64,000 nt of DNA from a virus (IMGVR_UViG_3300031998_000010); one strand, 5' to 3'; shown: positions 10,982 to 29,713, counted from the stretch's first letter. The notes: generated from the sequence alone by a model not told the origin. A program made the numbers and translations.

Positions 10982-11419
10982 TTACTTGCGATTGCGAAGT
11001 CTGCGGGAAGCAGAAACTCTCTTAGCCCTCTGCATTCTACGAGCTGCTGCAATCTTACGACCACGAACTCTTGTAGACTCCTCAACAATCTCTTCGTCAC
11101 CCTCAGGTGTAACGGTGATTTCTTCCTCACCTACTGTGAAAGTAACTTCTGTTGTCTCATCATCTACTGTGTAGTCAACAGGCTCACCTGTGACCTCTGC
11201 AAGAACCTCTGCAACGTCCTCAACCTCAAAAAGAAGCTCGGACTCTTCAGCCGGAACATCATCGGGAATATCACCACCAAAGTCCTCTTCAACTTCCTCG
11301 AAATCATCAACTTCTTCGATTTCGTCGTCGGACTTGATAGGTCTACGAGATGCACGGACGGGGCGTCTTGCGGAAGTAGCTAATCTTCTGCTTGCACGTA
11401 CTGTCTTTGTTGTCTTCAT
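10982..11419 (-). CDS. putative prohead core/scaffold protein
   Basis: Arg-rich termini with VRAS, IAAA, VSAS repeats around acidic core; adjacent to neck gene. Confidence 0.5.
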   Translation of the reverse strand: MKTTKTVRASRRLATSARRPVRASRRPIKSDDEIEEVDDFEEVEEDFGGDIPDDVPAEESELLFEVEDVAEVLAEVTGEPVDYTVDDETTEVTFTVGEEEITVTPEGDEEIVEESTRVRGRKIAAARRMQRAKRVSASRRLRNRK

Positions 11420-11437
11420 AGTTTTATTTCTCCTTAA

Positions 11438-12148
11438 TTAATTAAGTGCGACTAATTTGTTCTTTTTCGCCTCAAGTTCTGTCCTTATTGCTTCTAATTC
11501 TGCATTAGCTTCAGTTAATAAGGTTTCACCGTCTAGTGCGACATTTGAACCATCTACCCTGTACTTGCTCCTTGTTCGGCCTAATGACTTCTTCATTAAA
11601 GCTTCAGACATTCTTACCAGATAATCTATCCAAGTATCGCTAACTATTTCACTGACATCTTGATAATCAGGAACATATGTTATTGTTACTTGAGTAGGAA
11701 CTGGTTCGCGATGAGCTACATAAACAACTTGATTATCTACATCGTGTTTCCACTGGAAATCAGTAGATAAAGTATTTCTAACTTGAGCCATCGCCATCTC
11801 AGTCATGATAGGGTCAATATTCAATGAAGAAGTTTGACCTATCGCTGAATAAGTATTGACTGCGGCTGCTACTTGAAATACATTTCCGCTGTCGATGGAG
11901 CTCATTACGAGACCAACCCTTGGATAAGCACATTGAACGTTTAAGACTTTTTTCGTCTTTATTCCTAATGCAACAAGGTCAACCCTATGTTGAAAAGGAA
12001 TTGTCAAGTCGACAGGTGTCTTCATATAACGCTTTAATTCACGAAATGCAATGAGTACTGCTTGTTCGATTTGCATCTCCTCAATATTACTATTGGCAGG
12101 CATACCGAGCATAAAGCTTACTTGCTGTACTATCTCTTGCATCGTCAT
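11438..12148 (-). CDS. neck/head-completion protein (T4 gp13-like)
   Basis: C-terminal LGRTRSKY..VALDGETLLTEANAELEAI typical of gp13-like adaptors. Confidence 0.65.
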   Translation of the reverse strand: MTMQEIVQQVSFMLGMPANSNIEEMQIEQAVLIAFRELKRYMKTPVDLTIPFQHRVDLVALGIKTKKVLNVQCAYPRVGLVMSSIDSGNVFQVAAAVNTYSAIGQTSSLNIDPIMTEMAMAQVRNTLSTDFQWKHDVDNQVVYVAHREPVPTQVTITYVPDYQDVSEIVSDTWIDYLVRMSEALMKKSLGRTRSKYRVDGSNVALDGETLLTEANAELEAIRTELEAKKNKLVALN

Positions 12149-12177
12149 GATTAGATGTTATCCTTAGTATTTAAAGA

Positions 12178-12525
12178 TTAAGTACCGGAAGAAGCGCCTG
12201 CAAACTCAAAACCCTGGTCCTTAAGAGCAGGAGCAATCTCGCCAACATACTGAACATCAGCATCTGTTGCTTCCCAATCATAGGAACCAGCACGCATTGC
12301 AGCACGAAGAGCAGCAATGAGACCGGGATGAGCTACCTGAGCATTGAAGAATTCCTCAGGTGTCATGCCTGCACCGTAACCAGGAACATTTGTGTCATAA
12401 TAAGTGCCGTCAAAAACTGCATTATCGCAAGCAGCATTAGCAGGAACATAAGTAGCACAAATCTGTGAAGCAGGTACTACACTCTCATCAACGGGCTTTG
12501 TATAAGTAATGGTGATTGTAGCCAT
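12178..12525 (-). CDS. putative virion structural protein
   Basis: late-type promoter at 12608-12616, strong RBS, codon bias like capsid gene. Confidence 0.5.
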   Translation of the reverse strand: MATITITYTKPVDESVVPASQICATYVPANAACDNAVFDGTYYDTNVPGYGAGMTPEEFFNAQVAHPGLIAALRAAMRAGSYDWEATDADVQYVGEIAPALKDQGFEFAGASSGT

Positions 12526-12632
12526 GACTTTTGCCTCCTTATAAGATAAAAAATTTGATAGTTCCTTGATGACCGGTCAAGGATAGCAAATTTCACTTCT
12601 ACCTATATTTAAGGTTATTTTTATTTCATAGA

Positions 12633-12662
12633 TGTAGCCGAGGCATTTCTGTCTCGGCTACA
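12633..12662 (-). terminator. hairpin/terminator
   Basis: TGTAGCCGAG/CTCGGCTACA. Confidence 0.65.
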
Positions 12663-12690
12663 AAGGAAAGAAAGTAAAAGTGGGAAAGAA

Positions 12691-13092
12691 TTAGTCAAAA
12701 TTTGCGTGGTCTAATAAGTATTCTAAGCATTTTTCATCATAATCATAATCCCAAAACATGTCTTCAGCATTCTGACATTGTTCTAAACAAAAATCCATAT
12801 ATGATTCTGTGTTCTCTATATCAGAAGGCGCAGCTAAGTCATAAAAATTCTTTGCGTCTTGAGTCCTTAGATACTTGTCTACTATACTCCAGAAATCTCC
12901 ATATACCCAATCACTAATTATGTTACCAGGTACGGTGCAAGAAGCAGGAACCATGTAATATCTATCTACATCTGACCACTTCGGAACATCTCCATCGACT
13001 ATTTCATCATCAAATGTCTTTGAAAGTCCTTGTGATACATACTGGCTTACTGCTTCATCTTCAATTAATTGTATGTCTGAAAAACTCAACAT
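12691..13092 (-). CDS. acidic hypothetical protein
   Basis: ORF track; AAGGA RBS. Confidence 0.7.
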   Translation of the reverse strand: MLSFSDIQLIEDEAVSQYVSQGLSKTFDDEIVDGDVPKWSDVDRYYMVPASCTVPGNIISDWVYGDFWSIVDKYLRTQDAKNFYDLAAPSDIENTESYMDFCLEQCQNAEDMFWDYDYDEKCLEYLLDHANFD

Positions 13093-13095
13093 ATG

Positions 13096-13488
13096 TTATT
13101 CCTTTACTAAAAAACTGACGATATCAAAATCATCTAATGCTTCTGTTTGAGCAGCTTCAATTGCTCCGTATTCATCCTCAGCATCTACTGTATATGTAGT
13201 ATCTGTTCCATTGTATCCTGCAAAGTCAAAAGTTACTTCCCAAACATCTTCATCTAACGATTCTGTTTCTTGTATGCCTAACTCATCAATGAGTTCATAC
13301 ATGTAATCAGTTAGAAGAATTCCTTTTAAACAATCTTTGCTACAATTACTTGGACCTTCAACTTCAATTGTAGTTGTTGAATCTATGTATCCGTTGAAAG
13401 ATATTTCTACTTCATAAGTAACTGTTTTAGGCTCAGTTATTTTATAGCCACGAGATTCTAAATATTTTATCATCTCTTTGATTGACAT
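13096..13488 (-). CDS. hypothetical protein with internal duplication
   Basis: YEVEISFNGY..TTTIEVE and WEVTFDFAGY..DTTYTVD. Confidence 0.7.
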   Translation of the reverse strand: MSIKEMIKYLESRGYKITEPKTVTYEVEISFNGYIDSTTTIEVEGPSNCSKDCLKGILLTDYMYELIDELGIQETESLDEDVWEVTFDFAGYNGTDTTYTVDAEDEYGAIEAAQTEALDDFDIVSFLVKE

Positions 13489-13491
13489 TGT

Positions 13492-13752
13492 TTACATCTC
13501 CGGTTCAGGTGCACTTGTGTCATCAAGAAGTTCACTGATTTCACCAATTGCATCTTGAATAGCAGCAGACAACTTATCCATTATATCAAGAGCATCCTGA
13601 CAATTTCCATCTCTGCAAAGCTTATCAAATCCAGACATTGCATAATCAAAATCATCTGCAAGAGCGTCGCCTTGTTCTTCCACAAGCTCTTCGAGTGTGA
13701 GCTTATTTTCATCTTCGGCTGCAACGATTTTCTTGTTACGTGAAACTTTCAT
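13492..13752 (-). CDS. putative internal head protein (leader MKVSRNKKIVAA)
   Basis: basic leader ending IVA-A; GGAGG RBS. Confidence 0.6.
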   Translation of the reverse strand: MKVSRNKKIVAAEDENKLTLEELVEEQGDALADDFDYAMSGFDKLCRDGNCQDALDIMDKLSAAIQDAIGEISELLDDTSAPEPEM

Positions 13753-13754
13753 CT

Positions 13755-14111
13755 TTATTCCTCCAAATATTCTGTAAATTCGGGATTAGCATTCTCACAT
13801 TCGTCAATCCACTTGACTATAAGATTGAACCAATTATCTATGTTTCCTGCGTCATAATCAGCTTTGTAATCTTGTGCATCGTCGTAAAATTCTGTTCCAT
13901 TTACATCAAATGCATATTGTACACATTGAAAAATTAATCTATCAGGAAGTACAAATACTCGATATACATTGTGATGATTTATTTTAAATGAATAACAATA
14001 GCCATCATACGCGTCTGTTTTAGCAATGAGTCTATCGCCTAAATAATCAAGAAGTTGTCTGTCTACTGTTCCTATAACTGAATCTGTAGTTGCTTTAATG
14101 TAGAATCTCAT
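13755..14111 (-). CDS. putative internal head protein (leader MRFYIKAT)
   Basis: shared leader; GAGGTG RBS. Confidence 0.65.
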   Translation of the reverse strand: MRFYIKATTDSVIGTVDRQLLDYLGDRLIAKTDAYDGYCYSFKINHHNVYRVFVLPDRLIFQCVQYAFDVNGTEFYDDAQDYKADYDAGNIDNWFNLIVKWIDECENANPEFTEYLEE

Positions 14112-14126
14112 AAATTCACCTCATTT

Positions 14127-14438
14127 TTATATCAAACGATAATTAGGAATGTAGGTATAGTAATGATATAGCTCAGGACCCCAATCAGAACCTGTGTCCT
14201 CAAGCTCTTCACTTTCATACTTAAGTATTTCGAAATTCTCTTTGATAATATACTCAGACCTTAACAAATCATGCTTCCAATCGCCACAGACATAAATATC
14301 AATGATTCCAATTTCAGGGATAGGTTCGTAAATTCTAACACCATAAGGCTCTACATCATTAATTCCTTCATTCTGAAGAAGTGAAATCATTTCATCTTGG
14401 ATATCATATAGTATATGAATTTTATCTTGGTTATTCAT
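14127..14438 (-). CDS. hypothetical protein
   Basis: start MNNQDK at 14438 with AGGAG RBS; AACCTTATT upstream. Confidence 0.65.
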   Translation of the reverse strand: MNNQDKIHILYDIQDEMISLLQNEGINDVEPYGVRIYEPIPEIGIIDIYVCGDWKHDLLRSEYIIKENFEILKYESEELEDTGSDWGPELYHYYTYIPNYRLI

Positions 14439-14503
14439 AATGTATACTCCTATAATAAGCACTATCAAAGTATAGATAAATATAAATAAGGTTTACATCT
14501 GTA

Positions 14504-14530
14504 ATAACGATACAACCATGAATCGTTATA
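14504..14530. promoter_or_regulatory. back-to-back ATCGTTAT motifs at strand switch
   Basis: ATAACGAT-10 nt-ATCGTTAT; another plus-strand copy at 14638-14647. Confidence 0.6.
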
Positions 14531-14713
14531 ACTTTATAAATAATTATTAATATATATTAATATTTTGTCTTAACTATTGATGCTCAAGTTTTACATTCAG
14601 AAGGTCTTTTTAGTAAATTTCATAAACGAAGATATACAATCGTTAATATCTATATATAATAATTTATGAAATTTATATTTTATAGGTAAATATATTTATG
14701 AGGAGGACTGAGT

Positions 14714-14914
14714 ATGAATCCCGATGACCTCAACAATGATAACAAGAAATCTCATTTTGAGTATTCAACAGACGGAATCCATTTCAAGCCTATAGGGGCT
14801 GAAAATGAAATGAGTTTTGAAGATGCAATTTGTTTAAGTGTCAGCCTTTCAGAGGAAGATGCTGCTAGATTATGGGCAGCTCTTGACCCGCTAGAAATTA
14901 TAGGAGGTGATTGA
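14714..14914 (+). CDS. hypothetical protein
   Basis: GAGGAGG RBS. Confidence 0.7.
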   Translation: MNPDDLNNDNKKSHFEYSTDGIHFKPIGAENEMSFEDAICLSVSLSEEDAARLWAALDPLEIIGGD

Positions 14915-15247
14915 ATGATAACTACAGCAGTATCTGATTGCACAAGCAATCATGTAAACTACACAGACTCAACAAAGTATTGCTCAATTTCAAGAGGTGA
15001 TAGTACCGGAGATATTATTTCAATTACAACTACAGGCACATCTCCAATATGGTATACAAATACAACTACAACAAATCGCTATACTATTAGCTCTCCACCG
15101 ATTACCATACAAGATGCTCTCAATAGAATCGAAAAGCGGAGATATCATTGCATCTACTGCGGAACAGAATACATTGAAGAAAAAGAAGGATTTATTCCCA
15201 ACTGCAAAAATTGCGGAGCTATATTGAGGCATAAAGAAAATGATTGA
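14915..15247 (+). CDS. Zn-ribbon protein
   Basis: C-terminal CIYC..CKNC; GGAGGTG RBS. Confidence 0.65.
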   Translation: MITTAVSDCTSNHVNYTDSTKYCSISRGDSTGDIISITTTGTSPIWYTNTTTTNRYTISSPPITIQDALNRIEKRRYHCIYCGTEYIEEKEGFIPNCKNCGAILRHKEND

Positions 15248-15419
15248 AATTGATATAGATATGCCAAGTTGTTGCATAGATTGTCCTATTTATGATAATG
15301 AATTCGGCCAGTGTAATTTAATACCTGATAGTTGTTTTTATAACAAAGATACAGGTGAAGAACTTTACGACCCATTTGAAGAAAGAAATAAAGACTGTCC
15401 GCTTAAAGAGAGAAAGTAA
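15240..15419 (+). CDS. small Cys-rich phage protein (59 aa)
   Basis: hand-translated MIEIDIDMPSCCIDCP...DCPLKERK. Confidence 0.65.
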   Translation: MIEIDIDMPSCCIDCPIYDNEFGQCNLIPDSCFYNKDTGEELYDPFEERNKDCPLKERK

Positions 15420-15514
15420 ATATGGAGTTGATTATTGCAATTTGTATGATTATTATGATAATGATGTTACTGTTTGTAAGATAGTATAATTTTACAGAGG
15501 AGAATAAGTCGATT

Positions 15515-15697
15515 ATGAGCTGCATAAAGATTACTAGATTCGAATGGCTAAATCCGCAACAGATTACTTCGGTGTACTACTACGAAAATAACCACTTAGA
15601 AATTAGATTAGCAGACAAGCAATGCTATTCATTTTACGACGAAGCTGCTGTCGAAAAATTCAACCTGCTGAAAGAACATGGAATCATATATGAATAG
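15515..15697 (+). CDS. hypothetical protein
   Basis: GAGGAG RBS. Confidence 0.65.
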   Translation: MSCIKITRFEWLNPQQITSVYYYENNHLEIRLADKQCYSFYDEAAVEKFNLLKEHGIIYE

Positions 15698-16564: not shown

Positions 16565-17398
16565 TTAAGATTTCTCATCAGAATGTTTCCACAAATTCTG
16601 AAGGTATTCATTGTATAATTCTTCTCGAGTTACAATGTTTTTAGGGTCTTCTAAGAATTCTTTCATATACTGAAGTGAATACATATGCATCGGCTGTTTT
16701 GTTGGGTCTTTTTCATAGTCTGATTGAAGAGATTCCAAATATTTAATGAGTTCATCAGCTGTTTCTTTATCAATTCGCTTAGTGCTCATCTTAGGATGTG
16801 TATTGAAACCCTTGTTGATGTAATCATTAATATCATCTATATTAAGCCTTTTGATATTTGATTTTTTGAGAGCTTCTAGTGTTTTAGATTGCATCTCATC
16901 TTCTGTATAATCAGATGACTCAAATTCACTAATTAGAGGAGTAATGACTGTTTCAAAGATGTATGCCAATGTTCGATTCTTGATAAAATCTTTGTTTTTC
17001 ATTGAATCTAAGATAATATTATCAAAGTCAAAAGCTTCATTAGCATCAAATCTTCCTGTTAAATCTCCGCTACTCTTAGCAATTTCTTTTCTAATATCCC
17101 CTACATTATGCAATTTTCTGTGAGTATTCGGCTCTATTATCAAGATATTTTCGGGCCTATGGTCTTTTGGTCTTCCATTTATATGATGAAACCAGAAACC
17201 ATATTCACTATTATCTCCTGTAATTTTCTTCCACTCTAATATAGCATCTCTTATTGCATTAAAGATATGCTTATCTGTAAGGTCCGGAAAGTACTGTCGC
17301 ATGCAAGTGGTCAATACATCTCGAGGCTTTGTAGACGCAATAATACTCTTGCTGCATCTAATATAATTGGAATTATTGTTATGTATTAATAATTTCAT
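16565..17398 (-). CDS. HNH-domain protein with putative capsid leader
   Basis: HHINGRPKDHRPENILII..THRKLH; likely start MKLLIH at 17398 next to upstream stop; YIRCS/IIAS in N-terminus. Confidence 0.7.
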   Translation of the reverse strand: MKLLIHNNNSNYIRCSKSIIASTKPRDVLTTCMRQYFPDLTDKHIFNAIRDAILEWKKITGDNSEYGFWFHHINGRPKDHRPENILIIEPNTHRKLHNVGDIRKEIAKSSGDLTGRFDANEAFDFDNIILDSMKNKDFIKNRTLAYIFETVITPLISEFESSDYTEDEMQSKTLEALKKSNIKRLNIDDINDYINKGFNTHPKMSTKRIDKETADELIKYLESLQSDYEKDPTKQPMHMYSLQYMKEFLEDPKNIVTREELYNEYLQNLWKHSDEKS

Positions 17399-17399: not shown

Positions 17400-18254
17400 T
17401 CAGTTCCAGAACCCCTTGGGCAATGTTCTTCCTGTAGACTCAAATAGATATTCAACTTCTTCTTTATCATCGGAATCATATTTGCCAAAATCGGGAGATA
17501 TCTTAGGGAAGCTATACCATACAATATCATATAAATCATCATATTGATTAGCTTTATCACGACAGTTATTTAGTGTTTCACTAATAGTACCAGCAAGAAT
17601 ATCTCCATCATCAACGCACACTACAAATATATCATCATCTATAAAACCGTAGTATCCGTCATCAATCCATTTATTGAGTTGAGATAATATCTCTGCTCTG
17701 TATTGCTTATTAGTAAAATGTGGTTTCTTCTTAGGGGTTCCAGTTAAGGTTTTCACTTTTGTGCAGCTTATGATATCCGATGGATTTAACACAATGATAC
17801 CCTGACCATTTGATTCTGCAGAGTCACTGTATCTTACAACTATATCAGGATTACCTACTTTTTCAACAATATATCTAATACAATCCTTAGCCTGTATTGG
17901 CATCGGCAGCTCTTCACGCAGTGTTTGGTAGTCAACATCTATACCAAAACCCTCCGTTAATATTGTTTTAACGCTATTAGGGGTGGTCCAGCTCTGACCT
18001 AAACTACCTGAAATCATGTTAGAATATTGGACTGAGGGTGAAATACTGATTTTATATATGTCGTAGTTAACTTTAGGATTTCTCTCTGCAATCAGCTGCT
18101 CTGCTTTTTCTAGCCCATAGCAATGCAATGCTAATTCCCCTACAGCATCTGTTCCCAGTACATACCAATACATTGCTATTGGGTCTTCAACATGTGACGG
18201 AACTGCAATATACCAATCTTCTGAGAATGTTGATGCTTTTACATATATCTTCAT
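17400..18254 (-). CDS. ADP-ribosyltransferase-like protein (leader MKIYVKAS)
   Basis: paralog of 18686-19147; VVRYSDSAE..GIIVLNPSDI; extra C-terminal domain. Confidence 0.5.
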   Translation of the reverse strand: MKIYVKASTFSEDWYIAVPSHVEDPIAMYWYVLGTDAVGELALHCYGLEKAEQLIAERNPKVNYDIYKISISPSVQYSNMISGSLGQSWTTPNSVKTILTEGFGIDVDYQTLREELPMPIQAKDCIRYIVEKVGNPDIVVRYSDSAESNGQGIIVLNPSDIISCTKVKTLTGTPKKKPHFTNKQYRAEILSQLNKWIDDGYYGFIDDDIFVVCVDDGDILAGTISETLNNCRDKANQYDDLYDIVWYSFPKISPDFGKYDSDDKEEVEYLFESTGRTLPKGFWN

Positions 18255-18652
18255 ATTCGAGCCCTCCTTAAATCATTGCTCAATGTGTTATCTGAAACTT
18301 GTCCTAATTTTCTTATCTTACCATCGCCGAACTTAAACGAACCGTCGTCATAACAAGTTAATTCAAAAGTATATATCCCAGTAACTCCATGAAATTTTGG
18401 CGAAGTATATGGAATACTATATATTCGACAATCATCTTGAGATTCTATTATATGAATAATTTTATCTTCAGGTTCATAGTTTTGTGTTCTACCTAATTCA
18501 TTTCGGCTAGAAGGTGCCGAAAATAGCTTACCATTGAATGTTTTGATATTCATAAGCTGCTGAATAGTATCAGTATCTCTAGTATCGACTTCAGATAAAT
18601 ATTCTTGTATTGTAGGAATTCTAGATTCAGATGCTTTTACATATATCTTCAT
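18251..18652 (-). CDS. putative internal head protein (leader MKIYVKAS)
   Basis: shared leader; AAGGAG RBS. Confidence 0.65.
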   Translation of the reverse strand: MKIYVKASESRIPTIQEYLSEVDTRDTDTIQQLMNIKTFNGKLFSAPSSRNELGRTQNYEPEDKIIHIIESQDDCRIYSIPYTSPKFHGVTGIYTFELTCYDDGSFKFGDGKIRKLGQVSDNTLSNDLRRARI

Positions 18653-18685: not shown

Positions 18686-19147
18686 TTACACTTTTTCTAC
18701 AGATTTAATAATTGATTTATCTAATATGATAATGTCTTCTTCATTTAATTCTATTTCGTTATTATATTTAACAACAGCAGGGCTTCCTACTTCATTAATG
18801 ATATAATCTGCTGCAGTTTCTTTTGTCCATATTTTATCTCGTAAATCTTTAATTATTTGTGCCCTAGAAATGCTGATATCAAATCCAACATTAAGAATTT
18901 CATCAAGGCATTCAACAGAAGTCCATTCTTCAAAATCAGATATAGGATTAGAAAATTTAACTCCAGGATTAAGCTTTATTTCGTAGATATCGCAATCTCT
19001 ATTTTCTGCAAAATATTGAGCCTGCCCTAAACTTCCGCAATGTATTCCTAATTCATACCACCGAAATGATAGAGGGTCTTTACCTTTAGGTACTGCTCTG
19101 TAATATGTAATAGAAGGAACTTCAGTAGCTTTTACATATATCTTCAT
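18686..19147 (-). CDS. ADP-ribosyltransferase-like protein (leader MKIYVKAT)
   Basis: YYRAV..GIHCGS..QA.YFA..IYEIKL..VVKYNNEIE..IIILDKSII; start at 19147 by AAGGAG RBS. Confidence 0.55.
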   Translation of the reverse strand: MKIYVKATEVPSITYYRAVPKGKDPLSFRWYELGIHCGSLGQAQYFAENRDCDIYEIKLNPGVKFSNPISDFEEWTSVECLDEILNVGFDISISRAQIIKDLRDKIWTKETAADYIINEVGSPAVVKYNNEIELNEEDIIILDKSIIKSVEKV

Positions 19148-20475: not shown

Positions 20476-22338
20476 TCATGTTGATTTCCAATCCCAAGTT
20501 ATTGTACCAGAGTCAAATACTTGTATGCACTTGTGTAAATCTACCATCTGCTGTGTTACTTCGCTAGCTTCAATAGCCTGATTATCAGAATTTCTTATCC
20601 ACACACCCTGTTCATCATTGATAGAGACTTCTTTGAATCCCAATGTATAATACAGCTTGCTACTAGCATAAGCCCTATCTGAAGTTGTTATAATATCAGT
20701 AGGACTGTATTCAGAGATAAACTGCTTAAATAATTTGGAAGCACCTCCAACTACGCAAGTATTAAGCTTACTTGCTAACCTAGTTATTTCATATCTATCT
20801 GTATGCTTAATTGCAATTACTTGAATTAGCTCATCCTGATTATAAAGTCCGTAGTGTATGTTGGAATCGCTATATCCTTTAAGATGATTATTCTCTAAAA
20901 ACTTCTTAGCTTCTTCTGAAGACACTTTACAACACTTACACTTACTGGCATGTATCTTATCACTACAACCCAAAATGTTTCGCAACATAGATGTGATAAT
21001 GTTTTTCTTATGAGCCCACTCATATCCGAATATATGAAATAGATGTATTCCTGAAGCTTCACATAAGTCTGTTTTCATTTTATGATAAGTTGAAGGTAGA
21101 GGAGTATCTCCATATGCAGTATATGTAGAATTATGAGTACCCGTAGGATTCATCTCAATTGCTACATTGTACTCAGGTAGATACACATCAAGCTCATAGG
21201 GACTGATAAGAAATCTATTATGTTGTTGAATCTCTAAATCAGGCTTGATATCTTTCAGTATAGCTATGAGCTCTTCTTCAAAATAAGAAAATACTTTATG
21301 TTCAACTAAATCTAGTTTATCTTCATTAGTTAAGAATACTTCAATAGAATGTTCACTAACACCCAATGTAACTTTCAGTTCAGCTATATTGGGTTTATGG
21401 TCAAAATGAGCAGAAATAAAATCTTCAGGGTCACTTAGAAACTGTTTATAATTTTCAGATTTGCTTGGGTCAACCATAATAGATTCACGATGGTTCCAGG
21501 AAGCAGTATAAGAATTAGCTCCATATTTATTTTGGTTAGTTTGTATTAGTTTTGCTTTGACTTTTTGAGACTGAATGGGATGCTCTACACCATATTTTTG
21601 CTTTGATGTTTGTTTAATCTTGCTTTTTATCTTTTCACTTTGAAATACATTATCGACACCATATCGGTCTCGCACAGTATCAATTCGCTTAGCAATAACT
21701 TGAGGAGACTGCAAATGATATCTAACACCATACTTCCTTCTAACAGTATTCGCGTATTTTTTAATGTAGTCATCAGTTTGAGTATACCACTCAACTCCAT
21801 ATTTCTGTTTATTAGTCTCTTTTATCTTATCAATAACTCCAGGAATCTGAAAAGGGTTCTCAACACCTTCGCCATATTTAGCTTGAAGATTTTCTTTCTG
21901 ATGCTGTATAGCAGCTGCTTTATCTGTATGTTGTTGAGCTAAGATATAACGACATTCATCAGAACAAGTTTTATTAGGCTCACGATGAGGGTCATATTCA
22001 AACTGCTTACCGCATAATTCGCAAGTACTGTAATGAGGACCTTCGCAATATTCTTCTCTAATATATCTAGGATGAAACTCTTTTCCGCAACATTTGCACT
22101 TCTTAGTCAACTTACTCCCAGATTCAACTTGACGACGTTTTATTAATTCAACACCACATGCATCACTACAAGTTTTCTTCTGAGGCACTGTAGAACACAC
22201 TCTATCCATTAAATTTCCGCATATTACACAAGGAACTTTAATCGGCCTGTTGCAATTCATCTGACGAGTAGACGTAGGATGAAATGATTGCCCACATACT
22301 TGACATATCTTTGTATAATCAGGACTAAGTTTACTCAT
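20476..22338 (-). CDS. Hef-like homing endonuclease: Zn-finger repeats, KYG repeats, PD-(D/E)xK nuclease, GNAT-like C-terminus
   Basis: CxxC repeats; KYG(V) repeats; ELDVYLPEYNVAIE; FLENNHLKG..YEITRLAS..VVGGASKLF..SDR. Confidence 0.7.
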   Translation of the reverse strand: MSKLSPDYTKICQVCGQSFHPTSTRQMNCNRPIKVPCVICGNLMDRVCSTVPQKKTCSDACGVELIKRRQVESGSKLTKKCKCCGKEFHPRYIREEYCEGPHYSTCELCGKQFEYDPHREPNKTCSDECRYILAQQHTDKAAAIQHQKENLQAKYGEGVENPFQIPGVIDKIKETNKQKYGVEWYTQTDDYIKKYANTVRRKYGVRYHLQSPQVIAKRIDTVRDRYGVDNVFQSEKIKSKIKQTSKQKYGVEHPIQSQKVKAKLIQTNQNKYGANSYTASWNHRESIMVDPSKSENYKQFLSDPEDFISAHFDHKPNIAELKVTLGVSEHSIEVFLTNEDKLDLVEHKVFSYFEEELIAILKDIKPDLEIQQHNRFLISPYELDVYLPEYNVAIEMNPTGTHNSTYTAYGDTPLPSTYHKMKTDLCEASGIHLFHIFGYEWAHKKNIITSMLRNILGCSDKIHASKCKCCKVSSEEAKKFLENNHLKGYSDSNIHYGLYNQDELIQVIAIKHTDRYEITRLASKLNTCVVGGASKLFKQFISEYSPTDIITTSDRAYASSKLYYTLGFKEVSINDEQGVWIRNSDNQAIEASEVTQQMVDLHKCIQVFDSGTITWDWKST

Positions 22339-22440
22339 GATTAACACCTCCTATATCTATATTATAGTATAGAATGGTGCAAAAATAAATGGTATATTTA
22401 TAAACTCAGCGTTATTTGGTTAAATTCAAACAAAATAAAA

Positions 22441-22542: not shown

Positions 22543-24024
22543 TCAGAAAGCTCCGAGAACCTTGCCGGATACTACGGTTTGAGGATTGATTACGGATGCG
22601 GCAAACATCGTGGCATAACCGCTCTGTACAGAAGCATTAGCGAGGCCAATATCATCTGTTTTCACCATTGGCATGTAAATTCCCAGGAGAGCACTATTAC
22701 GTCTGATGTCGTTGCTCTTAGAGCACATAACCCAAGTATTCGGGTCATAGTAAGGGTCAACGTAGATTGTATACTGGTCAAGTGTACCGAGCTTGTAAGG
22801 TCCAACTGTCTCTTCGTTGGATGCTGCACTGAATCCAGGAAGTCTAGAAACAAGAGAAGCTACCTTTGTACCAACTACGAGTCTGTTAGGTCTTGCAAGG
22901 TTTGTTGCCTGATATACGGAATTTGCTGCGTCATCAAGCTTGAACTTGAAGAGGTTAAGGAAATCCGAAGGCATAACTGCACCATTGAATGCAAGGCTTG
23001 CATCCCAGTTATACTGAGGAGCATATGTTGCGGCCTTAAGGAGTTCGTTGAAGCAATAGCTGTTGATTTCAGCTGTGAGCTCGGAGAAAGCAGCCTCCTT
23101 GGAAATCTCACCGATATTTGCACCATACTCTTGCTGAGCTGCAAATGCGGAGTAGATGGACCAATAAGAAGCAAGCTCATGAGCCTCGGCGATGAGGTTG
23201 ATTTCATCGAGCTGGAGGTAAACCTTACCCATCTTAGCGCCATAGTTACCAGCATCATCAGGACCAACTGTCTCGTTGTCATACTCATAAGAAGCAACGA
23301 TGGAGTCGCCTGTAAGTGTGCCGATAGCACCTGTTGCATAGTTGATTGTACCAGCAGCAGCACCGCCGCCTACAGGAACGATATTGCCTGCGCCGTCGTC
23401 AACATACCTTGTTGTTGTGCCACCTGTTGTAACTTCGAAGGAAACGGAACCAGGAAGGATAGGAGTATAAGCGATTGTTGCATTAGCAATTGTCTCATTC
23501 TTTACTACTCTTCCGGTGAAGTTTGCATCATAACCCTGACGGTTAACAAATGCAGAAGAAAGGATATCACCCTTATGTGTCTCACCCTTTGTATTCTCTG
23601 CAACTACCTTGAAGTAAGGGATAATCTGCTGACGAGACTTCATTGCAACAGAACCGAAAACGTCCTCAACGAGGAGCTTCTGAACGAAAATAGGAAGGAG
23701 CTCTACGAAATCGGGCTTAGCGATGATGTTGGAAGTATTTGTAGCAGCCGTAATAGAAGTAAGTCTACGTGTGTTGCTGATGAGCTGATTAGCAAAGATT
23801 CTCTGCTCAGGTGTGAGCTGAACGGAAGCTGCAACAGACTGTCTTGCAACAGGACGAGCCATTCTAGAACGACCAGCAGCCGTAATAGATGTACCTGCGT
23901 TGATGCTACGAGGAGCAGAATAACCAATTCTTGAAGCCGGACGAGCTACCGGTCTGTTCATTCTGCTAGAAGCCGTAACACGAGTAGAAGGAGTAACTCT
24001 ACGAGTTGTCTTTTTAATAGCCAT
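22543..24024 (-). CDS. major capsid protein (T4 gp23-like)
   Basis: VAMKSRQQIIPY, LASYWSIYSAFAAQQEYG..ELTAEIN, YKLGTL..YTIYVDPY, YMPM; downstream of protease; strong codon bias. Confidence 0.85.
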   Translation of the reverse strand: MAIKKTTRRVTPSTRVTASSRMNRPVARPASRIGYSAPRSINAGTSITAAGRSRMARPVARQSVAASVQLTPEQRIFANQLISNTRRLTSITAATNTSNIIAKPDFVELLPIFVQKLLVEDVFGSVAMKSRQQIIPYFKVVAENTKGETHKGDILSSAFVNRQGYDANFTGRVVKNETIANATIAYTPILPGSVSFEVTTGGTTTRYVDDGAGNIVPVGGGAAAGTINYATGAIGTLTGDSIVASYEYDNETVGPDDAGNYGAKMGKVYLQLDEINLIAEAHELASYWSIYSAFAAQQEYGANIGEISKEAAFSELTAEINSYCFNELLKAATYAPQYNWDASLAFNGAVMPSDFLNLFKFKLDDAANSVYQATNLARPNRLVVGTKVASLVSRLPGFSAASNEETVGPYKLGTLDQYTIYVDPYYDPNTWVMCSKSNDIRRNSALLGIYMPMVKTDDIGLANASVQSGYATMFAASVINPQTVVSGKVLGAF

Positions 24025-24065: not shown

Positions 24066-25577
24066 TTAAAGGACTGCTAAATCTCCACCGTCACTGTCTA
24101 AATTATCAACTTCTGTAGGCAAAAGTGCTTCTTCATCAAATGAAGGATGGATGCCTATGTTAGCTGTATTTGTTGCTCCTTGGATTAAGTTTTCCAAATC
24201 GCTGACGGAAGTAGACGCAGTTACCTGTAAGCCAGACACTGAAATTCCTATTGCATTTGCATAAATATTAGCATACGCTTGCTGATATTCGAGCAACATA
24301 TCTTCCATTGCCTGAACTCTATCTAATGCAGAATTAAGTTCCTGCTTAGAAGCTGATATTTTAGCTTTGAGATTTTCAATTTGCTCACCAAGGTTTGATG
24401 CTTCTCTCGTTGCATTAGTACTAGCAACAACAGTTTTGTTAAGTTCTGAACGCAACTCGGCAATTTCTATATCTTTTGCCTTAATATCAGAAGAGGAATT
24501 CTCTATCTTCTGTTTATAAATAAGGTTATTTTTATTAACTGATTTCAATTTTTCAGATATTTCAGAATTTGATGCTTGAATACGAGATAATTCTTTACTG
24601 AAATTCTTATTTGATATAATTAATTTTGCATTTGATGCATTCACTTCTTTTAACTTTGATTGCATTAAATCTTGTTGGCTTGATGTTATTCTCTTAAGTG
24701 CTCTAATCTTTCTTCTAGATTCTAATTTAGTAGCAGACAGAATGCTTTCTGTTGAAGCTAATTGTGATTTAAGCTTCTTGTTTTCTGCCTTCTCAGCAAG
24801 ATATAGTTCAGTCATTGCTTTGATTTTCTTGCCCATGACTTCTTCTTTGTCTTCATCAGTGCATTCGGGGCACTCTTCCTCTTCGTCGTCATCAGGAATA
24901 TTTTGGTCTGCTACGCCAATATCTTCTTTACGAGCTTCTAACTTTTCATACTGCTCAGAACCTTCTTTGAACTGCTTCTGCATTGCTTCAATTGTATGAA
25001 TATCAGTTACATCTTGAATATTCTTTTCAATAGCAGCGCAAACTCTCTTAAATTTAACTTGGTCATCTAAATTCTTTGAAGCAGCAATCTGTTGGAATTC
25101 AGGAACAGCATCTGCATAAGCAGGAAATGCTACAAGGTCAAATCCTCTAAATACAAATGTATCGGGGTCAACATTTCCTTCTGCATCTACATCGCCGGCT
25201 CCTCTAATAGATATGCCCCATTGTACTCCGGCGTCTATAAATGATTCAACAATTCTTCCTACAGGAGTATCAATCAAATCAAATGTGCCGTAGATTTCAT
25301 CATCGTCTGTAATTTCCATTGAGGTCATTACAATACATGCATCTTGGAATGTTTGTGCACCTGGGTCTTCAGGGTGGCCAAGATATCCGATGTAATATCT
25401 GTGCTCCATTGCATCTTTATACTCATCAGAAGCAAGCAAGTGTTCAAATAATTCACGATTTAATTTCATATCGTTATTATTGAATACTGCTGCATCACAA
25501 CACTTTCCTGTGAATGTTCCGATGATAGATGATGTTTTTGGCATTTCAGTTGCTTTAATTGCAGTTTTCTTTGCCAT
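24066..25577 (-). CDS. prohead protease (T4 gp21-like) fused to coiled-coil scaffold
   Basis: GYLGHP, DTPVGRIV, GISIRGAG, FDLVAFPA; long C-terminal coiled coil. Confidence 0.85.
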   Translation of the reverse strand: MAKKTAIKATEMPKTSSIIGTFTGKCCDAAVFNNNDMKLNRELFEHLLASDEYKDAMEHRYYIGYLGHPEDPGAQTFQDACIVMTSMEITDDDEIYGTFDLIDTPVGRIVESFIDAGVQWGISIRGAGDVDAEGNVDPDTFVFRGFDLVAFPAYADAVPEFQQIAASKNLDDQVKFKRVCAAIEKNIQDVTDIHTIEAMQKQFKEGSEQYEKLEARKEDIGVADQNIPDDDEEEECPECTDEDKEEVMGKKIKAMTELYLAEKAENKKLKSQLASTESILSATKLESRRKIRALKRITSSQQDLMQSKLKEVNASNAKLIISNKNFSKELSRIQASNSEISEKLKSVNKNNLIYKQKIENSSSDIKAKDIEIAELRSELNKTVVASTNATREASNLGEQIENLKAKISASKQELNSALDRVQAMEDMLLEYQQAYANIYANAIGISVSGLQVTASTSVSDLENLIQGATNTANIGIHPSFDEEALLPTEVDNLDSDGGDLAVL

Positions 25578-25629
25578 TTATATCGCCTCCAAAATTAAAT
25601 TCTGAAATTATTCTAGATTATTTGAAATA

Positions 25630-25638
25630 ATAAAGGTT
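25630..25638 (-). promoter_or_regulatory. AACCTT-class late promoter
   Basis: AACCTTTAT upstream of protease; motif recurs before other structural operons. Confidence 0.65.
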
Positions 25639-25653
25639 ATTTCAACAAAAATA

Positions 25654-25682
25654 TAGCAGATAGAAATTAGCCTACCTGCTAT
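25654..25682 (-). terminator. intrinsic terminator
   Basis: ATAGCAGGTAG/CTATCTGCTAT followed by ATTTTT. Confidence 0.7.
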
Positions 25683-25708
25683 CAAAAAGAATCAAATTGT
25701 ATAAGAAA

Positions 25709-25981
25709 TTAAATTATGTCAACAGCACTATCTATTTCTGCAAGACCTAATCTGAGTTCAATACCTCGTCTAGGTAAGTCTACATAAAACTCCGAATCTA
25801 AAAGGTCGTTATCACTGAGTTCTTTAATTATGCTGATGTCTTCTGTAATATTTTGGTCAGATTCTTTCCAATATTCAAGATTTGCAATCAAATAATCTTT
25901 AGCAGTGTCAATATTAGAGTATATCTTTTCTGCCCAAGTATCATTATATTCATTTGTTGCATATATGACATAAAGTTTCAT
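25709..25981 (-). CDS. hypothetical protein
   Basis: AGGAG RBS. Confidence 0.7.
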   Translation of the reverse strand: MKLYVIYATNEYNDTWAEKIYSNIDTAKDYLIANLEYWKESDQNITEDISIIKELSDNDLLDSEFYVDLPRRGIELRLGLAEIDSAVDII

Positions 25982-25994
25982 ATGATTCTCCTAA

Positions 25995-26396
25995 TTACCA
26001 CTTGAATCTATTGCGACCATATTCCCTTAACAAATCATGAAATTCATTTTTGATAAATTTAGGATGTTCATCAAGAAACTCACCTAAAGCTTGCTTACCA
26101 AGATTTACATCATTCTCATCATAGAACCAAGAACCTGTAGCAGGATGGGACTGGAATTTTTCACCTGTTGATTCATTTACAAAGATGTAAAGAGGTCCTT
26201 TGTTGGCATATTGATTAAAGTATCTTTCATCTCTACCAGTAGCCCACTTCGAACCTTCAGATAATTTTGCACAAGCATCAAATGTAGTAGGGGAATACAT
26301 TGCCCACTCGTCATCTCTAGCAAGAGGGACTTCATCATTCATGAAAAATGATGCCCTTACATAGTCTGATGGATATTTAGTAAATGTTCTTTTCAT
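25995..26396 (-). CDS. putative internal head protein (leader MKRTFTKYPSDYVRAS), PcfJ-like domain
   Basis: shared leader; P.TFDA..L..GSKWAT..YFNQY..GPLYIFV..KFQ.H. Confidence 0.65.
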   Translation of the reverse strand: MKRTFTKYPSDYVRASFFMNDEVPLARDDEWAMYSPTTFDACAKLSEGSKWATGRDERYFNQYANKGPLYIFVNESTGEKFQSHPATGSWFYDENDVNLGKQALGEFLDEHPKFIKNEFHDLLREYGRNRFKW

Positions 26397-26436
26397 TGTT
26401 ATTTCTCCTTTACACCTAACCTCTTAATTATTGTGA

Positions 26437-26838
26437 TTATCTCCAACGCTGTCCATCATTGTATCTACGCACGCCATCAAGATATTCTTCCTCACTAATT
26501 GGAGATAGACAAAACATATAGTCGTTTAAATCGCATTGCTCTAATTCATTATCATAAAGATTAAACTTAGCTTCATCCCTATCATAACCAGTAGTAAAAG
26601 CATAATATTCTTGTCTACCACTTCCATCTTCAGGCCAGTATTGCATTACGGCTTGCCAGTATCCTGTACTATCGGAATTATTATTCGATAACTTCCCTTC
26701 AGCCATCTTTTCAGCTTTCCATTTTTCACGAGCCTGATACATAGTATAATTATGTTCTCTCTGTTTATTTATAGCATCATCAGTATATCTACTGCCCTTT
26801 ACATAACTACTAGGATACTTTGTAAATGTTCTTTTCAT
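26437..26838 (-). CDS. putative internal head protein (leader MKRTFTKYPSSYVKGS)
   Basis: shared leader; GAGGAG RBS. Confidence 0.65.
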   Translation of the reverse strand: MKRTFTKYPSSYVKGSRYTDDAINKQREHNYTMYQAREKWKAEKMAEGKLSNNNSDSTGYWQAVMQYWPEDGSGRQEYYAFTTGYDRDEAKFNLYDNELEQCDLNDYMFCLSPISEEEYLDGVRRYNDGQRWR

Positions 26839-26858
26839 AATCTTATCTCCTCTACCAT

Positions 26859-27536
26859 TTATCTTCTAGGTGCTACTAAATATGAAACATCTTCAATAGC
26901 ATTATTAAATGCATCAGTAACTGTTTTTATATGTCCTACATTTTTAAGACTCATATATCTGCCATCAACTAAAAGTGCTATATCATCATATATTCCCTGA
27001 CCTAAATCGGGAGAATATGCAAAATCGTGTAAAGGGGTCCTAGTTTTTTCAGGATATCTTGTTCGATGTCTCCAACTTTGTTTAATACCATAAACTTCGC
27101 TTAAAAGATAGATGGGGATACTATTTTCAACTGGCTCATCATAAAACTGTGCTTCATCTACCTTAAAATATCTTCTTATGTAATTCATAATTGGCTGCCC
27201 TTCAAGCCAATAAGGTATTTCCGAAATAAAATTATCATCTTTTACACCATAAGCAGGTTTATCGGCAAGTCGGTAACAATAATTTCTGCCATATGAACCA
27301 GTCATCATTTTATATTTATCTTTCTGACTGCCTATCAGATGAGTAATATAATCAAAATTTTCGTCATTTTTAGATAAAATTACAGGTTCTCCAGCCACCA
27401 ATTCAACAGCTTCTTTTGGTCCATATGCCTGTATTTCAACCCAAGAACCGTCCTTCTTATTTTGAACTTCCCATAACCTGAGTTCTTTACTAGCCTTCAC
27501 ATAGTTGCTTGGATATTTAGTGAATGTCCTTTTCAT
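26859..27536 (-). CDS. putative internal head protein (leader MKRTFTKYPSNYVKAS)
   Basis: shared leader; AAGGAG RBS. Confidence 0.65.
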   Translation of the reverse strand: MKRTFTKYPSNYVKASKELRLWEVQNKKDGSWVEIQAYGPKEAVELVAGEPVILSKNDENFDYITHLIGSQKDKYKMMTGSYGRNYCYRLADKPAYGVKDDNFISEIPYWLEGQPIMNYIRRYFKVDEAQFYDEPVENSIPIYLLSEVYGIKQSWRHRTRYPEKTRTPLHDFAYSPDLGQGIYDDIALLVDGRYMSLKNVGHIKTVTDAFNNAIEDVSYLVAPRR

Positions 27537-27553
27537 GGTTCTTTATTTCTCCT

Positions 27554-27802
27554 TTAACCTAATCTTCTAAGTATTTCTTCTTCAAGTAAATCGAGAATAT
27601 CTCCGAGTTCGTGATTTGGGGCAGTAATTGCTGAACCTTCACACATGAGTAAATATTTTTTGAAATGACTCAACAAATCTAATCCAGATAGCCCTTGAAT
27701 AATTTTAATCTTATCTTCCCGTTCTTCTGGCGAAAGAGGTTCAGTACTAGAATAAGATGCTTTAATATAATTATTAGGATATTTAGTGAATGTTCTTTTC
27801 AT
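27554..27802 (-). CDS. putative internal head protein (leader MKRTFTKYPNNYIKAS)
   Basis: shared leader; AAGGAG RBS. Confidence 0.65.
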   Translation of the reverse strand: MKRTFTKYPNNYIKASYSSTEPLSPEEREDKIKIIQGLSGLDLLSHFKKYLLMCEGSAITAPNHELGDILDLLEEEILRRLG

Positions 27803-27818
27803 GAGATATATTCTCCTT

Positions 27819-28193
27819 TTATTTCTTCAGGTCGTCACCAAGGACTTTACCTGTTAATCTGACCATTCCGCCAACTGCCAGTGTCTTAAGGATTTCACTA
27901 ATGATTCCTGCTTCAATCGGAGCATCTTCGGGAATATCAGCAAACTGCTCATAATCTGTATTGTCTATTTCTTCATAAGTAGCATCGTTGATTTCGGCTA
28001 CTTCGTCAACAGCTTCGGGTTCAACTTCAACAGGCTCGGCTTCATTCTTATTAATAGTATAAACTGACTCTCCAATTGTTACTTTAACAGTAGAATCATT
28101 TTCATCTACTGTTATTGCATAATCGGCTAATTCATCTATCTGACAAAGAAAGTCCAACAAAGCTGCTGGAGTAAACAATGTTTCTTCATTCAT
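27819..28193 (-). CDS. acidic protein with C-terminal amphipathic segment after IEAG
   Basis: ORF track; acidic core reminiscent of 10982-11419. Confidence 0.6.
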   Translation of the reverse strand: MNEETLFTPAALLDFLCQIDELADYAITVDENDSTVKVTIGESVYTINKNEAEPVEVEPEAVDEVAEINDATYEEIDNTDYEQFADIPEDAPIEAGIISEILKTLAVGGMVRLTGKVLGDDLKK

Positions 28194-28195
28194 GA

Positions 28196-28663
28196 TTAAT
28201 GCCTTCTTTCATAACATACTGTATCGGCTATTTCTTTTGCTATATCTAATCCGTAAGTACCCTTTAATTCTGCTACTATAAGTGACCATCCTGCACCAGA
28301 ATCTCTATAAGCATCCACTAACTGGTCAAATTCTTGTGCAGATATTTCAGGATATGTTGCAGCTTTTACATAATTACTTGGATACTTTGTACCACACTTG
28401 ATACTAGTTGAAGCATAAGTAGATTTAGGCTGATATTCTCCGTTAAAATCAATCCACCCACCGGCAACAATATCAGCACCCTCTTCCATTGCATTAAGGA
28501 AGTTTATGCAGTCTTCATCAGTATATCTTGATACAATATCAAAGACTTCTTCATTTGCAATGTAATTATCGTCTTCAGTGCAGATTTCAATATCAGAAAA
28601 TCTTTCTTTTGTAACTGTGTCACTGAGAATATAATCAATAACTTCTTGCCTTAAATCATTCAT
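28196..28663 (-). CDS. two-domain protein with internal copy of the capsid leader
   Basis: internal TKYPSNYVKAA. Confidence 0.65.
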   Translation of the reverse strand: MNDLRQEVIDYILSDTVTKERFSDIEICTEDDNYIANEEVFDIVSRYTDEDCINFLNAMEEGADIVAGGWIDFNGEYQPKSTYASTSIKCGTKYPSNYVKAATYPEISAQEFDQLVDAYRDSGAGWSLIVAELKGTYGLDIAKEIADTVCYERRH

Positions 28664-28724
28664 ATAAAGGTATACTCCTTTAGTAATATTAAAAATAAAA
28701 GGTTTGATGCTTGCTATAACGATT

Positions 28725-29048
28725 TCATACTCGTTCTGCGTCTTTTATCATGCCCTTAAATTGTTCCCAATCTTCTTTATCATACTTCGGTCGACAATAT
28801 GTTGAAACCCACTTGAGTTCATCATTCTTGGTCAACATATAATCTTCTACACAGCCATTTTCTTTCTGCAATACGTGAAGATATCCTTGGCTGCTGATAT
28901 AGAATATTTGACCATATTGTTCATTTACATAGAATTGATTTGGAGTCCATGACCTCATTCCATTTGTGAGGCGTTCAAAAGTCTCTAGCGACTTTCCTTC
29001 ATATTTTCCGATTGTTCCGGCTGCATGAGCCTTAATGTATCTCTTCAT
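28725..29048 (-). CDS. putative internal head protein (leader MKRYIKAH)
   Basis: ATG at 29048 with GAGGA RBS. Confidence 0.6.
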   Translation of the reverse strand: MKRYIKAHAAGTIGKYEGKSLETFERLTNGMRSWTPNQFYVNEQYGQIFYISSQGYLHVLQKENGCVEDYMLTKNDELKWVSTYCRPKYDKEDWEQFKGMIKDAERV

Positions 29049-29056
29049 GATAGTCC

Positions 29057-29713
29057 TCAATATTCAAAGTTATTATCAGGGTATACTAACTTATCGCCTT
29101 TGAAGTATGTAGAATATGAGATGTCATCGCATCTTCCACACATGAATTTCTTTTCCTCTCTATCATATTCGTCTTTGATATATACTTGCTTATCGGTGGG
29201 ATATGCAATAGGCTTGATAGTGAAGTATTCGCCTTTCTTCAAAGAACGAAGAGGAACTGCTTTGAATTCCCAATCGTCGGGATTAGGTTCTATTGCTGCT
29301 TTGATTGTATCACAACCTGCTATAGACTCTTCATAATCTCCAATACACTTAAGATATTCTGTGTCAAACTTCTGTAAAAGTTCCGGAACATATTTCTTCA
29401 AATCACTGGGATATTTAATTCTTCGCATATCAATCGGTTTATCTAATTTGATATTAAAGAAAAAATCATCTACGTCTACATCAACATCTAACTTATTGTC
29501 GTCTTCAATGTAGCAGCGAAGATTAATGGGGTCGTCTTGTTGGAAATTATAACATTCTTTAGCTCTGATTGCTTCTTCAAGCGGAATCTCAATATATTCG
29601 ATACAATCATCTCGTGTAAAGAATCCATCTTCAATACCTAAGAAGTTATCGCACTCAATTCGTTCTTTAGCTTCCCATTCTAATTGTCTTTTTGATGCTT
29701 TGATATGCTTCAT
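29057..29713 (-). CDS. putative internal head protein (leader MKHIKAS; internal IKAA)
   Basis: ATG at 29713 with AGGAG RBS. Confidence 0.65.
   Translation of the reverse strand: MKHIKASKRQLEWEAKERIECDNFLGIEDGFFTRDDCIEYIEIPLEEAIRAKECYNFQQDDPINLRCYIEDDNKLDVDVDVDDFFFNIKLDKPIDMRRIKYPSDLKKYVPELLQKFDTEYLKCIGDYEESIAGCDTIKAAIEPNPDDWEFKAVPLRSLKKGEYFTIKPIAYPTDKQVYIKDEYDREEKKFMCGRCDDISYSTYFKGDKLVYPDNNFEY

Follow-up and report, generated by a model that had tools for sequence, protein, structure and literature searches.

Why should proteins that otherwise have nothing in common begin with the same short, basic peptide? The question is raised by a 64,000-nucleotide stretch of viral DNA (IMGVR_UViG_3300031998_000010), referred to here as the window, in which a series of open reading frames (ORFs) within positions 10982-29713 share an N-terminal leader ending in a motif of the type [IV]-x-A-[ST]. 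The source phage is uncultured, with a genome of about 200 kb and about 35% GC; almost all genes of the window lie on the minus strand, with the head module at approximately 9-29.7 kb and the tail and baseplate genes at approximately 29.7-57 kb. A search with its capsid protein found 12 related IMG/VR contigs of 58-86% identity, some of them complete (155-214 kb), and the closest cultured phages reached merely 25-27% or so. The comparisons below draw on a close relative, G001 (200 kb, 77% capsid identity, 263 proteins), a distant one, G003 (155 kb, 43% GC, 58% capsid identity, 177 proteins), another relative genome, G005, and the loci L001, L002, L003, L006, L008 and L010 of relatives. With moderate confidence, we read the leaders as capsid-targeting propeptides in the style of phage T4, served by an Ala-specific protease of the gp21 type; from this we infer that the leaders would be cleaved and the leader-bearing ("tagged") proteins packaged and injected. 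The tagged proteins are probably loaded into the capsid.

Unrelated proteins with a shared leader

Thirteen minus-strand ORFs between 13492 and 29713 (Table 1; each is named here by its lower coordinate) carry MKxY[IV][KR]A[ST], MKRTFTKYPxxY[IV]xA or a looser basic leader ending in [IV]-x-A-[AST]. Leaders of the form M-K-x-Y-[IV]-[KR]-[AS]-[AST] were designated class A (ORFs 17400, 18251, 18686, 13755 and 28725), and those of the form MKRTFTKYPxxY[IV]xA, such as MKRTFTKYPSNYVKAS, class C (ORFs 25995, 26437, 26859 and 27554); the looser leaders belong to ORFs 29057, 13492 and 16565. Every leader listed in the original prediction was recovered at its ORF, including MKVSRNKKIVAA at 13492, and the sequences behind the leaders proved, as had been claimed, mostly unrelated: among the 13 bodies, BLAST linked only those of 17400 and 18686 (E 3e-19), all other pairs having E >0.5. 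Thirteen leader ORFs with 12 unrelated bodies thus display the short shared N-terminal propeptide that marks capsid targeting in T4. The strict form of the motif, Y[IV][KR][AGS][STA], occurs 10 times in the window against approximately 0.58 expected from composition (19,550 residues), which places it above background, as had been anticipated; nine of these occurrences are in the ORF set used for the count and one is in 17400, an ORF absent from that set, and 8 of the 10 are found no farther than residue 16. At 25995-29713, the tagged genes are tightly packed, flanked by a tail gene and the protease gene, and many tagged genes lie inside the block of head and tail genes. Leader-like starts were also seen beyond positions 10982-29713, namely, MKKQGNIKAQ at 2759-3028 and MTDKYVKAV at 63730-63897, both on the minus strand.

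The bodies themselves gave few clues to function. No significant family was found for the window's tagged proteins in Pfam and PHROG, barring the HNH domain of 16565, and there was a weak match to phrog_10203. Scanning 27 tagged proteins detected only LRR_5/LRR_8 leucine-rich repeats (LRR) in two proteins and a phosphoribosyltransferase domain in one, and a search of Atlas with the body of 25995 returned only a weak PcfJ lead. The recognizable domains among the putative cargo are BspA-type LRR, phosphoribosyltransferase and HNH, and the remainder belong to no known family.

Matching motifs in the capsid and protease-scaffold proteins

The motif that ends the leaders recurs in the proteins that build the head. 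The major capsid protein has a basic propeptide of approximately 93 residues (nt 23746-24024), and none of its motifs (VTAS16, INAG, ITAA47, VAAS64 and ITAA91), of which four are strict sites, lies beyond residue 94. The junction that follows, [IV]-[TM]-[AG] and then A-T-N-T[SN]NI, is conserved in six relatives, an alignment consistent with the predicted mature capsid start ATNTSNI (A94). In the head core-like protein, [IV]-x-A-[STA] occurs 4 times against 0.44 expected, a count reached in 0 of 300 shuffles, and its orthologues retain [IV]-[RV]-A-[SE] just ahead of the acidic part. The protease-scaffold protein holds 8 such sites against 1.4 expected (again 0 of 300 shuffles). The motif lists first drawn up for the capsid, protease and core proteins match the counts found, and so does the proposed enrichment in head over tail genes: the protease-scaffold and core proteins stand above their shuffles, and the tail and baseplate proteins total 11 against approximately 18.5 expected. 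Several of the protease-scaffold sites are conserved in position. Among 11 relatives, [IV]AA[ST] right after the protease domain (residues 164 to 167) is invariant, and VCAA or IKAA approximately 15 residues after IAAS, VVAS in the scaffold and VTAS (residues 452 to 455 of 503), approximately 50 residues before the C-terminal end, are conserved as well. Judged from these alignments, the conserved capsid junction and scaffold sites appear to follow the pattern [IV]-x-[AG] and then [AST], without Glu, and do not obey the Glu-cleavage rule [LIV]-x-E. The leader end [IV]-x-A-[ST] is thus the motif conserved at the putative processing positions of capsid and scaffold, where cleavage would be expected. 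The Ala-specific site that had been proposed stands in this respect, since [IV]-x-A-[ST] is found at conserved processing positions across the clade, but it is too narrow in another: the residue before the predicted cut (P1) may also be Ser or Gly, and the residue after it (P1') is often other than Ser or Thr.

Next, we consider the enzyme that would make these cuts. The original prediction had drawn an analogy with T4 and its protease gp21, and Pfam, PHROG and the predicted fold agree that the gene next to the capsid gene encodes a prohead protease of the gp21 type. The match to Pfam Peptidase_S77 (PF03420) passes marginally (27.3 bits, cut-off 27), and that to the phrog_207 head maturation protease is strong (E 7.7e-19). 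An AlphaFold (AF2) model of residues 1 to 230 (predicted local distance difference test, pLDDT, 70) has T4 gp21 (5JBL) as its best PDB match (probability 1.0, template modelling score 0.57 by target), and the next matches are the proteases of human cytomegalovirus, pseudorabies virus (PrV) and herpes simplex virus, pointing to an assemblin-like fold. Searching the PDB by sequence, with the single sequence and with a profile, found nothing relevant; only the fold search gave a match. The candidate catalytic triad H68, S123 and D147 is invariant in 11 relatives and aligned in a Bacillus phage homologue, and its spacing seems similar to that described for gp21 relatives (PMC5694885). The nearest cultured phage, Bacillus phage vB_BceM-HSE3, encodes a homologous protease-scaffold fusion of 30% identity, and inspection of its capsid N-terminus by eye found no comparable Ala-type motif. 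Where the Bacillus phage homologue has RNKRGY and GISSRG, the protease of the window has NNNDMK and GISIRG, segments that are candidates for setting an Ala preference. In most relatives of the window, residues 236 to 250 or so of the protease-scaffold protein (24800-24870, minus strand) form a conserved acidic patch with two Cys residues (ECPE-C[ST]DEDKEE). It is possible that the basic leaders and propeptides dock on this patch, or that it binds metal as a small site.

Taken as a working scheme, the leader would be an N-terminal propeptide with, at its end, the site that the prohead protease of the phage itself cuts. It would first dock its protein on the assembling protease-scaffold core, perhaps through the conserved acidic stretch in the scaffold or through the protease's groove for substrates, and the capsid shell would then close around the core. 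The activated protease would cut after the small residue in [IV]-x-[A/S/G], which would remove the leaders and the basic capsid propeptide, free the protease itself from the scaffold at IAA/S, and fragment the scaffold and core protein. The freed proteins would remain in the head alongside the DNA and would probably pass into the host together with it. A complex prediction for the protease domain with a tagged 82-residue protein scored 0.00 and carries no weight either way.

The evidence from the motif addresses cleavage rather than location, and this leaves room for a reading in which the leader is a processing signal and not a capsid address, the proteins being trimmed in the cytoplasm by the phage protease or a host peptidase and never entering the head. 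The number and variety of tagged proteins would suit cytoplasmic roles, as would the HNH nuclease and the protein with a phosphoribosyltransferase domain, and there is a precedent in the Firmicute phage 80alpha, which relies on the host protease Prp for its N-terminal leaders (PMC9405229). Nevertheless, T4-type prohead proteases are described as active within the prohead (PMC9026906), the Prp motif is absent from the N-termini, and many tagged genes sit within the head and tail block; we hold cytoplasmic trimming to be unlikely.

Selection on the leader and its spread across the clade

Comparison of orthologues separates the part of the leader that is kept from the part that is free to change. 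In the orthologues of 29057, 13492 and 16565, the N-terminal parts vary in length and sequence, and [IV]-x-A is retained immediately before the conserved body. For 29057, I-[KT]-A stands at a constant distance from the body; for 13492, six orthologues have a variable N-terminal part and keep [IV]-x-A-[ASE] ahead of the body; and the homologue of 16565 in L002 begins MKIYVKAT, with its A-T aligned to the A-S of the window. As far as these alignments go, a constant distance between motif and body behind a variable N-terminal part is what would be expected of a scissile bond. Leaders and bodies also appear in different combinations. The body of 25995 has a class C leader in the window and in two relatives and a class A leader (MKVYISAA or MKVYIRAA) in two LRR-containing proteins of G001. 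In 28196-28663, the C-terminal half shares 71% identity with a separate 77-residue protein of L008 (L008:5363-5596) that has the leader at its N-terminus, and the first 90 residues or so are unrelated to the L008 body; because of this match, the gene is, on the sequence comparison, a fusion that retained the site at its joint. If cut at the internal leader, its product would be a two-part polyprotein.

These observations also bear on the idea that the leader is a tag for some other partner, such as a modifying enzyme like those acting on ribosomally synthesized and posttranslationally modified peptides, a chaperone or an export route, and that its likeness to the capsid and scaffold sites is a coincidence. 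A scissile bond explains better than a binding epitope why orthologues retain [IV]-x-A alone and hold it equally far from the body. Moreover, the leader has neither the Cys/Ser/Thr pattern of modified cores nor a hydrophobic signal segment, and the only radical-SAM-like gene seen in G001 belongs, on a visual reading of its N-terminal sequence, to a gene cluster of the queuosine type. We therefore regard such a tag as decidedly improbable.

The codons of the leader tell a similar story of constraint. The four MKRTF leaders do differ at synonymous sites, as originally noted, and the DNA upstream of these class C genes has little in common except the ribosome-binding site. Across 16 class C genes of the clade, F-T-K-Y-P, the Tyr and the Ala are invariant, the codons are varied, and Ser codons of both the AGY and the TCN type occur. 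Since the invariant residues use varied codons, including both Ser codon families, the leader appears to be under selection at the peptide level. In class A, positions 6 to 8 are conserved even when the sequences are chosen only by M[KR]xY[IV]. A shared start could, in principle, reflect selection on translation initiation or N-terminal stability through an A/U-rich start or a favorable second codon, and the 35% GC of the genome and the A/T-rich leader codons AAA, ATA and TAT would agree with this. It is nonetheless the amino acids that are constant and the codons that vary, with GC-containing Ala codons among them; Tyr at position 4 in 58 of the 263 G001 proteins (22%) is not an effect of composition; and the motif recurs at an internal fusion joint and in capsid and scaffold. 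This explanation is thus very unlikely.

The leaders extend well beyond the window. In G001, approximately 49 of the 263 proteins are leader bearing, with 21 BLAST-unlinked bodies. The MKxY[IV] pattern, searched for in the DNA, follows the gene strand, with 22 forward and 0 reverse matches in G001 and 0 forward and 19 reverse matches in G005, and it gives 0 to 2 matches in three relatives of approximately 60% capsid identity, including G003. In the latter, some ten basic leaders end in [IV]-x-A-[AST], one of them the class C-like MKRTFTKRPVTAS, and 19 of its 177 proteins have the loose motif near the N-terminus. Since G003 carries such leaders at 58% capsid identity, the Ala-type rule and a tagged set of T4 size would seem to be old in the clade, with a later large expansion in the subclade of the window. 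Part of the G001 set consists of approximately 27 tandem paralogues of about 100 to 120 residues, located among baseplate genes at 113974-116594 and 136912-148439 (L018-L020), which start with MKIY[ACS][STN] and have a common GKD[LV]WVKV-like motif. Short MKIY[AC]S starts belong for the most part to this one family, as would be expected if the leaders were functionless and shared only by descent or by recombination of 5' gene ends, a notion we find barely credible given the unlinked bodies (21 in G001, 12 in the window), upstream DNA that is not conserved next to class A positions 6 to 8 that are, and the persistence of MKRTFTKRPVTAS in so distant a relative. Each of the four alternatives fits the data less well than capsid targeting.

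Several points nonetheless weigh against capsid targeting. Cleavage, packaging and injection are all deductions, made for a clade that has no cultured relative, and the Ala specificity is read from sequence patterns alone. To our knowledge, no targeting sequence that has been proven is as short as the leaders of 5 to 7 residues. The tagged set of G001 far exceeds the number of cargo species known for T4, and the HNH nuclease, phosphoribosyltransferase-domain and BspA-type LRR bodies are not obvious effectors, and for the first two it is hard to see why a capsid should contain them. Chance alone often produces the loose motif [IV]-x-[AGS]-[AST], at approximately 0.4 per 100 residues, and avoidance of the motif inside cargo bodies (2 against 4.8 expected) is not specific, the reversed control giving 2 against 5.1. 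Finally, all characterized gp21-type proteases cleave after Glu (PMC5694885), so that Ala specificity would represent a change of specificity within this family.

A bolder version of the capsid-targeting reading, which we put forward only tentatively and would sooner doubt than accept, is that this S77 lineage shifted P1 from Glu to Ala or Ser, reaching or keeping the herpesvirus rule Y-[VI]-[KQ]-A/S, and made a site of 5 to 15 residues into a universal address; cargo might dock in the substrate groove, and about one-fifth of the proteome (at least 50 unrelated proteins) would be loaded and would reach the host along with the DNA. Should the cuts prove real, the ancient head-protease fold common to phages and herpesviruses can switch from Glu to Ala, with all substrates of the genome rewritten to match, and the maturation of the two groups would be linked by both a cleavage rule and a protease-scaffold architecture. 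Under the same condition, phages that infect gut or rumen bacteria of low GC would gain a compact handle for packaging, since a tag of only 7 residues would suffice to bring arbitrary proteins into a capsid, and dozens of uncharacterized proteins would be flagged as candidates for delivery to the host. The feature itself is real, and the reading is testable with recombinant protease, with no need for phage culture.

Some neighboring genes of the window deserve mention. A very acidic 124-residue protein without a leader (27819-28193, minus strand) is kept in 11 of 11 relatives, mostly directly upstream of the protease gene, and might be another part of the scaffold or of the head-assembly machinery. 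Immediately downstream of the capsid gene, a 623-residue gene with Cys-rich repeats (20476-22347, minus strand) matches a homing/HNH endonuclease (phrog_3339, E 1.5e-82); L001, L003, L006 and L008 have one or two similar large Cys-rich genes at the same place, as judged by N-terminal similarity. The head module also includes a 584-residue protein (9134-10888, minus strand) whose C-terminal region has weak DNA-binding (phrog_3636) and DUF5856 matches. The protein at the corresponding position in L010 begins with the leader-type MKKHISAS, and the window copy has no such start. Outside the head module, positions 3000-5400 (minus strand) are poor in ORFs and richer in GC, and ARAGORN finds there only a tRNA-Trp (4089-4162) and a tRNA-Ile(tat) (4555-4649), the latter unusually long at 95 nt.

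Table 1. Head-module features and leader-bearing genes of the window, with putative leaders and predicted cut positions
Feature	Coordinates	Strand	Leader or motif	Remarks
Head core-like protein	10982..11419	-	VRAS7, VRAS21, IAAA123, VSAS135	145 aa; basic ends around acidic middle
Small acidic conserved head-module protein	13492..13752	-	MKVSRNKKIVA then A (MKVSRNKKIVAA)
Tagged protein	13755..14111	-	MRFYIKA then T
HNH-domain protein	16565..17398	-	Long leader MKLL..YIRCS..IIAS; cut site SIIA then S	phrog_7545 HNH, E 1.5e-6
Tagged protein	17400..18254	-	MKIYVKA then S	Paralogue of 18686
Tagged protein	18251..18652	-	MKIYVKA then S
Tagged protein	18686..19147	-	MKIYVKA then T
Major capsid protein, Gp23 type	22543..24024	-		Pfam Gp23, E 1.3e-19; phrog_138
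Prohead protease (residues ~16-165) with coiled-coil scaffold-like region (~170-503)	24066..25577	-		503 aa; Pfam, PHROG, fold
Candidate self-cleavage sites of the protease-scaffold protein			IKAT7, IAAS164, VCAA179, VNAS312, IQAS333, VVAS383, ISAS407, VTAS452
Possible tagged protein (uncertain)	25709..25981	-	MKLYVIYA then T	L001 orthologue MSKVFVITAT
Tagged protein	25995..26396	-	Class C, MKRTFTKYPSDYVRA then S	Body perhaps PcfJ-like
Tagged protein	26437..26838	-	Class C, MKRTFTKYPSSYVKG then S
Tagged protein	26859..27536	-	Class C, MKRTFTKYPSNYVKA then S
Tagged protein	27554..27802	-	Class C, MKRTFTKYPNNYIKA then S
Fusion protein	28196..28663	-	Internal leader copy TKYPSNYVKAAT; TKYPSNYVKA then AT	Residues 92-103, nt 28355-28390
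Tagged protein	28725..29048	-	Class A, MKRYIKA then H
Tagged protein	29057..29713	-	Short leader MKHIKA then S

Comparison with known systems

A search of the literature found no published description of such a system, and four known ones share parts of it. In phage 80alpha, the host protease Prp cuts the N-terminal leaders of the capsid and scaffold proteins (PMC9405229, PMC5744158), and there, too, a short leader of phage head proteins is removed ahead of Ala-Ser; in contrast, the phage studied here has a protease gene of its own, with further copies of the motif in the scaffold part. A host leader of the Prp/L27 type was considered and rejected, the motif (D/N)LQ(F/L)F/A being absent from all N-termini here. 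A six-frame scan for (D/N)LQ(F/L)F/A(S/H)KK gave scattered matches, one in the window and four in G001, none of them followed by a leader-type [AS][ST].

The phiKZ-like giant phages (phiKZ gp175, SPN3US gp245) have many head-internal proteins, including paralogous families, with propeptides cut by a gp21-related protease (PMC5694885), and the protease cleaves itself at its C-terminal end. They differ in cutting after Glu (A/S/G-x-E) and in having long, dissimilar propeptides, whereas one short shared tag is found here.

T4 provides the closest functional parallel. Its capsid targeting sequences, of 10 to 19 residues, are cut by gp21 and are enough to load foreign proteins (PMC9026906). As with IPI, IPII, IPIII and Alt, a short N-terminal propeptide on unrelated proteins ends in what would be the site of the cognate protease; both systems also have a protease of the S77 family, a capsid protein of the Gp23 family, many copies of the motif in the scaffold and core proteins, and a leader that starts M-K-x-Y. 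The predicted cut, however, is different: here it follows Ala, Ser or Gly in [IV]-x-A, and in T4 it follows Glu in [LI]-x-E. The tagged proteins number a dozen in the window and approximately 49 in the close relative rather than 3 or 4, the leaders have 5 to 15 residues, and protease and scaffold form one fusion protein. Since the T4 sequence MKTYQEFIAE has only M-K-x-Y in common with the leaders, the two are better described as analogues than as homologues.

The herpesvirus assemblin system (pUL26/pUL26.5) resembles the window in other respects, namely, the protease fold and the fusion of protease to scaffold. The family here is of the gp21 type and the third catalytic residue is apparently Asp147, not His, so the enzyme resembles assemblin without being a member of its family. 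We know of no herpesvirus in which the site serves as an N-terminal address for a large set of cargo proteins. The likeness, which the original prediction did not include, extends to the putative site itself, be it by convergence or by descent. Herpesvirus cleavage follows [VLI]-x-A/S, and in PrV, where the protease is likewise fused to the scaffold and has the same fold, the release site is YLQA-T and the maturation site VQA-S (PMC4498786). By their sequences, the putative boundary site IAA/S would correspond to YLQA/T, and VTA/S near the C-terminal end to VQA/S. Moreover, from P4 to P1' the pattern of the herpesvirus release site is also that of class A leaders, Y-[IV]-[KR]-A-[ST].

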